This document shows positions 8,248 to 11,735 of a stretch of DNA of 64,000 nt, one piece after another. This DNA is from Podospora anserina (Eukaryota). The stretch lies in assembly GCA_017654855.1 (NCBI GenBank), contig CM030332.1:3224001-3288000 (forward strand), read 5' to 3'. The translations under genes and the position numbers were made by a program. Position 1 is the stretch's first letter. Each line of letters starts with the position of its first letter. The notes under the pieces were generated by a model. That model worked only from the letters and a program-made list of their open reading frames with translations, ran no database searches and was not told where the DNA came from.

Positions 8248-9049
8248 GTTTGTATATTGAATCCTGAATCTGACGATGAAGAGCAAAGAATGAAGAACGT
8301 GAACTTGAGGTGGTAGGCTATTGCAAGAGGTGCAAGGTTTGGCTCTATGTCGGGTAAGTCGTAAGGGCACGCGTATCTAGGTGGTGGATGGCTGCAGGAG
8401 CGAGTCTTTGCTTTGGGTTGGTACATATAAAAACAGCGATGGTGGGGGAGGGGCAGAGGGGTAAACAAGCTGAGAAAAGTCCCTGCGTTCCAGATTGTTT
8501 TGGGCGCCAACCAAGCAGTGCCAGTGGCAACCATCTGTTGCGTGCGCACCGTGTGCCTGGGAGGTGGCCTTGAGTGACCAGCTGTCAGCCGGCTGCCGGG
8601 AGCTCATGTCATTCCCGTCACCGTCCCCGCCCCTGCGACTTGCATGTCACTGTTGCTGATCGGCGGCAGACACGCTCCTGCTGCTGCGGCAGGCAGAGCA
8701 GAGCAGAGCACGGGTGCTGGCACTCAACCAGCATCCTGCCGTCCATTGAATGTTTTGCGCCGTCCACGATTGTTCCCCCAAACCTAATAATTCTGACTTT
8801 TCAACAATTCTCTTCACTTTTTAATATCCTTCAGCAGAGCCAACGCCACGTATCATTAGACTGCGACGCGGATGAGCTTATATTGCTGAGAATTAACTTA
8901 TAAAAGGGAGCACAGAACACCAGGGTATACTTCATCCATATCCATCTCAACACGACCATAATCAAACCGCACCCACAACAACCAATCTACCTATCGTCCG
9001 ATCCATCAATATCCCAACTCGCTCTTGCCTTGCCACAGAGCCGATAAAA

Positions 9050-10163
9050 ATGGCGCGATTGAGCAGCCCGATCGACGACGACTCGGGCTCTCCCCTCTCT
9101 TCCATGGATTCCACCGACAACGAGTTTCCAGATCGCGACGCCCCCGAAGACATCATGGAAGACGCACCACCAACCAAACGGCTCAAGACGGCCACTGGCT
9201 CGGTAGCCTCGCCAGCATTTCACAAGGAGGCCAGCGTCGACCCAGACATTGATACTGTATCGCAAGTCTCCTCCGACACCGATGGCGACGTGCCAAACTC
9301 GCCCATCAATGCGCGCCAAGAGGAGGAAGAGTATGCGGAACAGGTCACCATCTGCCATTGGGAGGGCTGCAAGGCTGGCGACCAGGGCAACATGGACAAT
9401 CTGGTCGAACACATCCACAGCGATCATATCGAGACTCGAGCAAAGAAGTATACCTGTGAATGGATTGGATGTACTAGGAAGGGAATGGCCCATGCCAGTG
9501 GTTACGCTCTCAAAGCTCACATGCGAAGTCACACCAGGGAAAAGCCATTTTACTGCTATCTTCCAGGTAGGCTCTGCAAAACAGCTGCTCTGCATCGTGA
9601 TGATTGGTACTAACTACTGCCTCCCAGAGTGTGATCGCGCCTTCACCCGCTCCGACGCCCTGGCCAAGCACATGCGAACAGTCCACCAGACAGAAGACCT
9701 CCGACCCTCAGATCCCGTCTCGAAGGCCCACCAAACCACGGGCAAGTCGAGCAAGAACCTCCGTATCATTCTCAAGACACCACAATCGCACGCTGCCGGC
9801 CAGGATGACGCGGTAGATGACAGCGATGTTCCCTACGAAGACTCCGAGGACATGCTCACACCCTTGGACGAAGAGCTGTTTAGTCCCGAGGAGATTGCTA
9901 TGCCACGTGAGAAGCTATTCCAGCTAACTAAACTTCAGCTAAAGTGGGCCGAGGAAGAAGGGAAGCGGCTCGAGGCTGAGCTCAAGGAAGTCGGTGAACT
10001 TTACAAACAGGAGTGGCTGGAGAAGGAGGTTCTTCTGGAGCAGGTCATACGGAGCGAGAAGGACTGGTTTGCTCGTAAACAGGCAGTGTTGTCGGGAGAG
10101 GCGGACGTGGTGTTGACGGCTCCTGAAGCCGCCGCAAATTCTGTCGAGGATGCGCAAAACTAG
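9050..10163 (+). CDS. C2H2 zinc-finger protein, INO80 subunit Iec1/YY1-like; exons 9050-9566, 9628-10163 (350 aa to first stop)
   Basis: CHWEGC..HIHSDH, CEWIGC..ALKAHMRSHTREKPFYCYLPECDRAFTRSDALAKHMRTVH, then a coiled coil. TATAAAA at about 8899. Confidence 0.8.
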
Positions 10164-10637
10164 TCTACGGGCGCTCAAGATCAGCTTTTGGACGCGTCTT
10201 CTGTACCTTTGGATATCCAAGGACCCCCTTCTTCCGACAATGCTTCGGATCAATCCCCTTCTTCCAACAACGCCTCAAATCAATATGTACATTTGACTTT
10301 TCGATCCTGCGATGTCAGCGAGACGTATTTGGCCACCGCTGAAAACACTGCTGAGGCTGAAGTCGTCTGTTTGAAGCTGCGCATACCTTTTTTCGCCGCG
10401 CCTTACGTATGTCGATTCAAGAACTGTGAGAGGTCTGAAACGCCTTACATCAGTTATCGAGGTCTCCATAGTCACTACTCTTGGGTGCACAAGTCCAAAG
10501 ATGCAGGCGGCAATCCTATTTCACAGTCTGTTACTTGTCCGGTGAAAACTTGCCCCCGGTCTGAGGAGGCGATCAAAACTATGGATTACCTTTGGATTCA
10601 TCTCGAGAAGCGGCACAATGTTTCGTACCCCGCCTGA
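10164..10637 (+). CDS. In-frame C-terminal extension of the Iec1-like gene beyond TAG 10161-10163, with two further C2H2 fingers
   Basis: Same frame and stop-free for 157 codons. Contains CRFKNC-x15-HYSWVH and CPVKTC-x15-HLEKRH. No ATG precedes the fingers. Confidence 0.7.
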   Translation, partial: STGAQDQLLDASSVPLDIQGPPSSDNASDQSPSSNNASNQYVHLTFRSCDVSETYLATAENTAEAEVVCLKLRIPFFAAPYVCRFKNCERSETPYISYRGLHSHYSWVHKSKDAGGNPISQSVTCPVKTCPRSEEAIKTMDYLWIHLEKRHNVSYPA

Positions 10638-11129
10638 CGGTTCGACTGGGGATGGGAAATGTGGTCCGGGACAAGCGTTGTAGGTAGAGTCACTTGACAA
10701 GATAAAATCAAATGCTTCTTGGGCATCTCTTAAGAGGCATATCAATGCATATTTAGCGCCTGTTTGCTATCTTTCAAGGCCCATTGACTATCTTTTTGAG
10801 TGCGTGTGTGTGTTGAGTGTTTGAAGGTCTAGCTATTAACTATCCTATGCCTGCTAACAATCCTCAAAGGCCTGCTTAATTTTCTTTGCAGGTTTAAATA
10901 ATTACTTTTCAAAAAACCCGTGGGCTGGCTACCTATCTTTGAAGGTACCTATTTCCCCGTGGCATTATCTCTATTTTCTTCTGTCCATGACATGCGAGAG
11001 CATTATAGACTATAACCACAAAACATGCCATTTTACACCTCTTATGACACACACACACACACACACACACACAAGGTTTTTTTTTCTATGTCCAATGTCC
11101 AACCCTTTCCTCGTCCTCATCCTGAGGCC

Positions 11130-11735
11130 TCAACCCGACTTCTTCTTCTTCTTCCTATCCGCCTCTTTATTCCTGAAAGGCCACCCGCTAGTAGCCTTAT
11201 CCGCCCCGGTCCGCCTGCTCAGTCTTTTCCCATCTCCGAATAGGAGGACGTAGAGCCCTACGCAAGCGAGGAAACTGCTTGCTAGACAGCCCAAGAGGTG
11301 GATCGGTTGGGAGGTGCGGGGGGTGGTGTACCGGGTGTAGGAGTATACCCCCGTGGCGGAGTGGTATAGTGTTGTGATGAGGACTGCGGCGGAGGAGTAA
11401 GGGGATGGGGAAGGGCTCAAGGGGAGGAGGCCGGAGAGGGCGAGGAGGAGGGCGGCGAGGGTTAGGTTTGTTAGGGCGAGGGTGCGGGCGAGGTAGGTTG
11501 AGACGAGATCGGAAGAGGAGGGGGGGTAGTAGTTTGGGGGCGTGAGAAGGGTTGTTGTTAGAGAGGGCCAGAGGAGGAGGGGGAGGGATTGGAGGAGGAG
11601 GTAGAGGAGAGTGGTGAGGTGGAGGAAGGTGGTTGACTTGGTGAGCATTGGGTTAGTTTGTGTGATGGATTATAATTGTAGGGGGGGTTTGGTGAGTAGG
11701 GAACTTACGTCCATTTCGGAGGGTGAGGTGTCCAT
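11130..11735 (-). CDS. Small fungal multi-pass membrane protein; exons 11735-11709, 11636-11130
   Basis: GTAAGT/CTAAC/AAG intron, four hydrophobic segments, and C-terminal RRTGADKATSGWPFRN plus a basic tail. Confidence 0.75.

Follow-up and report, generated by a model that had tools for sequence, protein, structure and literature searches.

A two-zinc-finger frame behind the UAG stop codon of Podospora iec-1: a candidate for stop-loss recoding by A-to-I editing

The known Sordariomycete route past a UAG stop codon is sexual-stage adenosine-to-inosine (A-to-I) editing of messenger RNA (mRNA), an activity attributed to FgTad2 and to TAD2/TAD3 orthologues, which favors U at -1, A or G at +1 and +3, and hairpin loops, and which has been reported among the Sordariales in Neurospora crassa and Sordaria macrospora, Podospora not being listed (review PMC11156358). 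In premature-stop-correcting (PSC) genes, such as PUK1 of Fusarium graminearum, a domain-coding part of the open reading frame (ORF) lies behind the UAG, is translated only after editing, and belongs to a conserved orthologous protein (PMC4817773, PMC11156358). In stop-loss editing, the functions of which were uncharacterized in fungi until recently (PMC11156358), it is the canonical stop that is recoded, as in 403 F. graminearum genes that include FgDBF2; protein levels fell with the Dbf2 extension and with all six of the extensions tested there, and the authors hold that the stop-loss extension adds no new biochemical activity (PMC13123824). Here we describe, in a 64,000-nucleotide (nt) stretch of Podospora anserina DNA (GenBank assembly GCA_017654855.1, contig CM030332.1, positions 3,224,001 to 3,288,000; hereafter the window), an iec-1 gene whose UAG stop is followed in frame by a long open extension that ends in two zinc fingers, and we weigh the possibility that these fingers are expressed through editing of that stop.

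Comparison with the described systems places iec-1 close to, and apart from, each of them. With FgDBF2 it shares a canonical UAG, U at -1, a possible hairpin loop and an mRNA that goes on in frame behind the stop; the stage-specific recoding of UAG to UGG is demonstrated for FgDBF2, whereas the same mechanism is only proposed for iec-1, whose site is a candidate. The extensions also differ, that of FgDbf2 being a disordered degron of 24 amino acids (aa) and that of iec-1 comprising 157 aa that end in two fingers of a folded type (PMC13123824). With PSC genes iec-1 shares a domain-coding segment behind a UAG, but unlike them it encodes upstream of that codon a complete conserved IEC-1 of 350 aa, the downstream module being a lineage-specific addition. 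Stop-loss and premature-stop-correcting editing are known already; what would be new here, against the cases described in PMC11156358 and PMC13123824, is a folded finger pair added to a complete conserved protein.

IEC-1 of N. crassa (NCU03206), a C2H2 protein of the YY1/PHO/Iec1 type, recruits INO80 and is co-immunoprecipitated with it; the group formed by this protein, Schizosaccharomyces pombe Iec1, YY1 and PHO shares with the Podospora product its C2H2 character, a length of about 350 aa and conservation in ascomycetes (PMC5406019). The N. crassa association was established by co-immunoprecipitation, while the link of the Podospora protein to INO80 rests on sequence homology. The spliced gene in the window is an ORF of 350 codons, its second exon spanning 9628-10163 with the stop included, and three C2H2 fingers can be read in the translation; among Pfam finger profiles only PF23561 passes its cut-off (27 bits), PF13465 falling below its own. 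The protein retrieved 699 homologues, with E-values down to 4.6e-106, several of them named INO80 complex subunit 1 in their source. The best homologue, a 350-aa protein of Podospora pseudocomata, matches the aligned part of exon 2 with 100% identity and shows a single residue difference (K/R) in exon 1; a length of 350 aa is likewise recorded for the homologue P0003. By homology, then, the gene is identified as the Podospora (anserina-complex) orthologue of Neurospora IEC-1. Orthologues from Triangularia setosa and Apiosordaria backusii share the terminal ...SVEDAQN, so that the last residue is common to the annotated proteins of three genera and the position of the iec-1 stop predates the genus. 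The normal IEC-1 product has 350 aa and ends at a genuine UAG.

A first-pass annotation, made from the letters alone, had named the gene Iec1-like and described its end as ...GAT GCG CAA AAC TAG, with the same frame open to a TGA, a U directly after the stop, two identically spaced C-x4-C-x15-H-x4-H fingers in the added part, a single in-frame ATG inside the second finger, and growth of the product from 350 to 508 aa upon read-through. Each of these points held: the name agrees with the source names of homologues and with N. crassa IEC-1, the stop stands in the context TAG TCT, and the frame behind it contains 157 sense codons (Table 1). If the TAG is read as W, the product has 350 + 1 + 157 = 508 residues and the junction peptide DAQNWSTGAQ. 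From the base composition of the region, 157 open codons have a chance of about 1.1e-3, the remaining two forward frames past the stop being open for 43 and 58 codons. The extension contains one Met, at residue 140 within the second finger, and has no independent start of its own. The finger motif occurs twice in the six frames of the window, both times in the extension; among 200,000 residue shuffles of the extension, 44 gave at least one match and none gave two. Both the open frame and the fingers are thus beyond chance expectation.

Table 1. Coordinates of the iec-1 locus and its downstream frame (positions counted from the first letter of the window)
Feature	Positions	Strand	Details
iec-1 exon 1	9050-9566	+	Start codon, fingers 1 and 2, beginning of finger 3; PF23561 match, 28.7 bits
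Intron	9567-9627	+	61 nt, GT..AG, CTAAC branch site; joint in RNA contigs X1, X4, X5; no joint in DNA run X17
iec-1 exon 2, coding part	9628-10160	+	Remainder of finger 3 and C-terminal region to ...SVEDAQN
Predicted hairpin	10149-10176	+	4-bp GCGC stem (10152-10155 with 10171-10174); 15-nt loop containing UAG
TAG stop codon	10161-10163	+	Candidate editing site A at 10162 (U at -1, G at +1, C at +3)
In-frame open extension	10164-10634	+	157 codons: low-complexity linker of about 80 residues, then two fingers
Finger A	10410-10490	+	C-x4-C-x15-H-x4-H (CRFKNC...HYSWVH); aligns to P0123 repeat units
Finger B	10536-10616	+	C-x4-C-x15-H-x4-H (CPVKTC...HLEKRH); contains the sole in-frame ATG; aligns to P0123 repeats
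TGA stop codon	10635-10637	+	Closes the extended frame
Sequence past TGA under an X1 contig with the iec-1 exon junction	10638-10777	+	X1 record 3: 9336-9562 joined to 9624-10777

Homology searches indicated what kind of domain these fingers represent. A HMMER scan of 1.84 billion representative proteins returned one relative of the extension, P0123 of Clonostachys rosea (E 8.4e-8, five matched stretches), the two being 28-29% identical across 71-73 residues. When the extension is aligned with P0123 repeat pairs, all four Zn ligands of either finger match up; a Leu three residues ahead of the first His is identical to P0123 in finger B and similar in finger A, and the core aromatic or aliphatic residue is kept (Y and I, against F in P0123). 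Against the Pfam profile PF17017 (zf-C2H2_aberr), the P0123 fingers score 39.9 bits and pass the cut-off of 27, and the extension, with 20.0 bits (E 7.9e-4; residues 81-152 on profile positions 1-66), stays below that gathering cut-off. PF17017 arrays such as that of P0123 have in common with the extension the C-x4-C-x15-H-x4-H spacing and an arrangement in pairs with a short linker; they differ in that P0123 carries about ten fingers behind a kinase domain and comes from another taxonomic order. This architecture, a protein kinase domain with some ten equally spaced fingers in tandem behind it at residues about 540-951, is unusual in itself, and the P0123 family was limited to Clonostachys in a word-based search (3/3 matches). 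Judged by these alignments, the extension fingers are a real domain type, PF17017-like. Because the open frame and motifs exceed chance, P0123 is homologous, and both ligands and core residues align, we conclude from sequence comparison that the extension codes for a real finger pair, or did so until very recently.

Other comparisons bore on the source and structure of the module. A recent copy of an annotated gene was rejected, no library protein being closer than 28% identity, Podospora proteomes included, and so was a duplication of IEC-1's own fingers (best BLASTP E = 0.004 over 44 residues). No further copies of the module were detected in the window by tblastn, where only the self match fell below E = 4, and no library protein model includes the extension. 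A search of PDB sequences gave no match at E up to 1; a single-sequence AlphaFold2 model of the extension alone had a mean predicted local distance difference test score of 39.6, too low for use, and the ESM Atlas returned generic C2H2-like clusters (0.89-0.93, at most 146 shared features) that serve as leads only.

Expression of the region was assessed with contigs of four (X1, X4, X5 and X17) among 22 listed public sequencing runs, aligned to window positions 8900-11100. Run type was assigned by the known intron: it is skipped in X1, X4 and X5 (joint 9562/9624, cut +4), identifying them as RNA, and retained in X17, identifying that run as DNA. Such contigs reveal neither RNA ends nor minority variants such as partial editing. 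The intron-spliced RNA contigs continue past the TAG and the entire extension, reaching 11037 in X4 and X5 and 10777 in X1; the X1 contig changes at 10755-10777, in one study only and in material that cannot mark RNA ends. No second splice joint was found between 9624 and 11037 in any of the three RNA runs. Three adverse outcomes named in the first-pass annotation were accordingly not observed: RNA contigs do not end before about 10400, DNA and RNA both read TAG rather than a sense codon, and the spliced contigs show no joint besides the known intron. The RNA contigs that cover iec-1 thus cover the extension too, a bridging contig alone being no proof of one transcript.

The same contigs address the possibility of an assembly or sequencing error, in which the true codon would be a sense codon and the gene would simply encode 508 aa. 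Position 10162 reads A in the DNA run and in the RNA contigs of X1, X4 and X5, which come from three studies, and this agreement argues against such an error. Moreover, all three RNA runs have G at 9160 where the window and the DNA run have A (GAA>GAG, synonymous), so the RNA runs represent another strain and provide independent support for the TAG. The change at 9160 itself has A at -1 and is complete in each contig, and looks like a strain difference rather than editing. As annotated proteins of three genera also end at this residue, and nothing in favor of an error was found, we consider it extremely improbable.

The fingers might instead be expressed by a route other than editing: a stage-specific alternative splice, a shorter transcript with non-AUG initiation, or readthrough of an unedited UAG. 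Contigs display the dominant form only, and a spanning contig does not prove a single transcript, which leaves some room for such forms. The known intron is nevertheless the sole joint in all three RNA runs, and the absence of further splicing from the contigs argues against a dominant alternative splice. A scan for frame-keeping introns across the TAG (GTRNGY donor, CTRAY branch site, YAG acceptor, length divisible by three) produced no candidates, the same donor and branch-site patterns matching the known intron as a control, and a usable in-frame AUG is lacking. Leaky readthrough is associated with motifs such as UGA-CUA or UAG-CAR-YYA, and neither of these is matched by the context UAG UCU ACG. 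Taken as a group, these routes appear quite improbable.

Against this background, stop-loss recoding by sexual-stage A-to-I editing is the most likely route to expression of the fingers, and we assign it a probability of roughly 0.4. Selection on the module would explain both its intactness and its frame, and would require a route past the UAG, for which editing is the one known in Sordariomycetes. The bases at -1 and +1 of 10162 (C-U-A-G) are the preferred ones, and predicted folds of 31, 41 and 61 nt place this adenosine in a 15-nt loop with a closing stem of 4 bp, the 101-nt fold in a bulge. In the mechanism we propose, the unspliced iec-1 mRNA would carry 157 further codons, for a disordered linker and the lineage-specific, intact C2H2 pair; editing activity during fruiting-body development would change UAG to UIG, read as UGG (Trp), and a fraction of iec-1 transcripts would then yield a 508-aa isoform. 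Its extra fingers could add DNA or RNA contacts, or might merely alter protein stability. Editing at 10162, its stage-specificity and a role for the extra fingers are steps that we infer.

Several results weigh against this proposal. At the site itself, the +3 base is C (TAG TCT) where A or G is favored, as a preference and not a requirement, and the eight TAG-ending orthologous loci described below all differ from Podospora in having A or G there. The predicted hairpin is no more stable than shuffled sequences (z -0.06 to 0.52), and a loop closed by at least 4 bp also holds 31% of the 269 control TAGs. The RNA contigs read A at 10162 and display no editing, a weak objection in that contigs drop minority variants. 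Codon usage of the extension is barely coding-like. GC content at its three codon positions is flat (0.50/0.47/0.50), the third-position value of 0.50 comparing with 0.64-0.66 for the exons of iec-1 and 0.60-0.75 for eight long ORFs. On a codon log-odds score trained on the genes of the window, with 92 in-frame windows of real genes as reference, the extension scores -0.004, the best of its six frames, at the lower edge of the gene windows (minimum -0.012, median 0.33); without stop codons its score is -0.045, little above noncoding flanks and reached by 105 of 2,000 shuffles. The extension was found in no annotated IEC-1 homologue, none of the 120 listed among the 699 having extra fingers or covering more than 58% of the read-through query, and the finger module was absent from all 12 distinct Sordariales-like loci recovered from metagenomes. 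In the literature, the characterized stop-loss extensions are short, disordered, destabilizing degrons (PMC13123824), and a published comment disputes, in its abstract, the general adaptiveness of stop-loss editing (PMC13684035). Our search found no report of editing in Podospora, and, by title and abstract, nothing on iec-1 editing in the literature on NCU03206 or on INO80 and perithecia; the supplementary editing site tables for N. crassa, S. macrospora and F. graminearum may list orthologous sites.

Some of these observations lend themselves to another explanation, in which the extension is a relic that is never translated: the last 157 or so codons of some zinc-finger gene, with their own TGA, would have come to lie in the 3' untranslated region (UTR) of iec-1 in the Podospora lineage, in sense and in frame by chance, as part of a long 3' UTR. 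We regard this as nearly as likely as editing, though not probable in its own right. The convergent downstream gene adjoins iec-1 in the window and in seven metagenome loci (L001, L003, L004, L010, L011, L013 and L015), and the distance from the iec-1 stop to its conserved segment is 993 nt in the window (compared over 10164-11154), against 296-545 nt in all seven. The Podospora lineage thus has a surplus of about 450-700 nt, in summary about 470 nt, roughly the size of the extension, and this longer spacer, together with the absence elsewhere, marks the finger module as lineage-specific. Insertion of a fragment would account for this surplus and for the 12 orthologous loci that lack the extension, and the codon usage and third-position GC content resemble noncoding or foreign sequence. 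The odds that a sense fragment lands in frame are estimated at roughly 1 in 6 to 1 in 12, and a scan of many windows would surface such cases. Set against this is the state of the fragment. In an old neutral one, stop codons should have accumulated (P about 1e-3) and ligands should be missing, but neither finger is damaged, so a relic must be young; and no donor or close paralogue exists among the 1.84 billion representatives, Podospora proteomes included, so the fragment is not a recent copy of any annotated protein. Nor is there a signature of repeat-induced point mutation, the indices for which are unremarkable (TpA/ApT 0.64), and that process was rejected as a factor here. Were the relic explanation correct, the locus would be a mere curiosity, a gene fragment in a 3' UTR.

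Orthologous loci offer a view of the stop codon beyond Podospora. The metagenome scan retrieved 16 loci with C-terminal tails like those at the ends of annotated Sordariales proteins. Twelve of these loci are distinct; eight of the twelve stop with TAG, three with TAA and one with TGA (loci with listed stops are L001, L002, L004-L011 and L014). In all eight TAG loci the stop adenosine lies in a hairpin loop of the minimum-free-energy structure, compared with 57% (31-nt folds) or 46% (41-nt folds) of 269 other TAGs within the same loci. Only some five lineages stand behind the eight loci, so the pattern hints at, but does not prove, a conserved role of the iec-1 stop as a stop-loss editing site in Sordariales. 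In L006 the UAG is at the tip of an uninterrupted predicted stem of 9 bp.

These loci also bear on a variant in which editing is real but, as with FgDbf2, the extension either tunes protein dosage or stability as a tail or is a by-product of no consequence, with no retargeting of INO80. The lowered protein levels and the lack of added activity described in F. graminearum are in keeping with such a tail, as are the low complexity of the first 80 or so extension residues and the in-frame extensions behind TAG in the orthologues, which run to 24-63 codons and are unrelated to that of Podospora. On the other hand, a degron has no need of a finger pair that is intact and keeps its ligands and core residues. 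The idea that orthologue extensions are longer than chance was not supported either: in-frame runs had a median of 32.5 codons and out-of-frame runs one of 14 (Mann-Whitney p = 0.10). We think this variant improbable.

The fullest form of the editing proposal is a developmental domain switch, in which IEC-1, in the sexual stage only, would gain a lineage-specific finger pair captured downstream of an already editable UAG and so redirect the remodeller. We rate this as unlikely, and the retargeting of INO80 by the extra fingers is purely conjectural. If true, it would represent the first stop-loss edit to add a folded nucleic-acid-binding module instead of a disordered degron, and a case of new domain accretion enabled by an editable stop codon. 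Stop-loss editing would then have a different use, the conditional change of domain architecture in a chromatin-remodeller targeting factor, and a gene with an editable stop could test a captured domain during one stage of life while the other bears no cost. Podospora anserina is a tractable genetic model, in which the idea of a domain switch is directly testable.

Two further features were observed downstream of the extension. Every aligned contig ends at 11037, immediately before a (CA)n microsatellite at 11038-11062 that lies between the two convergent genes. Beyond it, on the minus strand, the convergent ORF at 11130-11669 encodes 179 aa from stop to stop, hydrophobic and rich in Leu, Thr and Pro, with a lysine-rich C-terminus.

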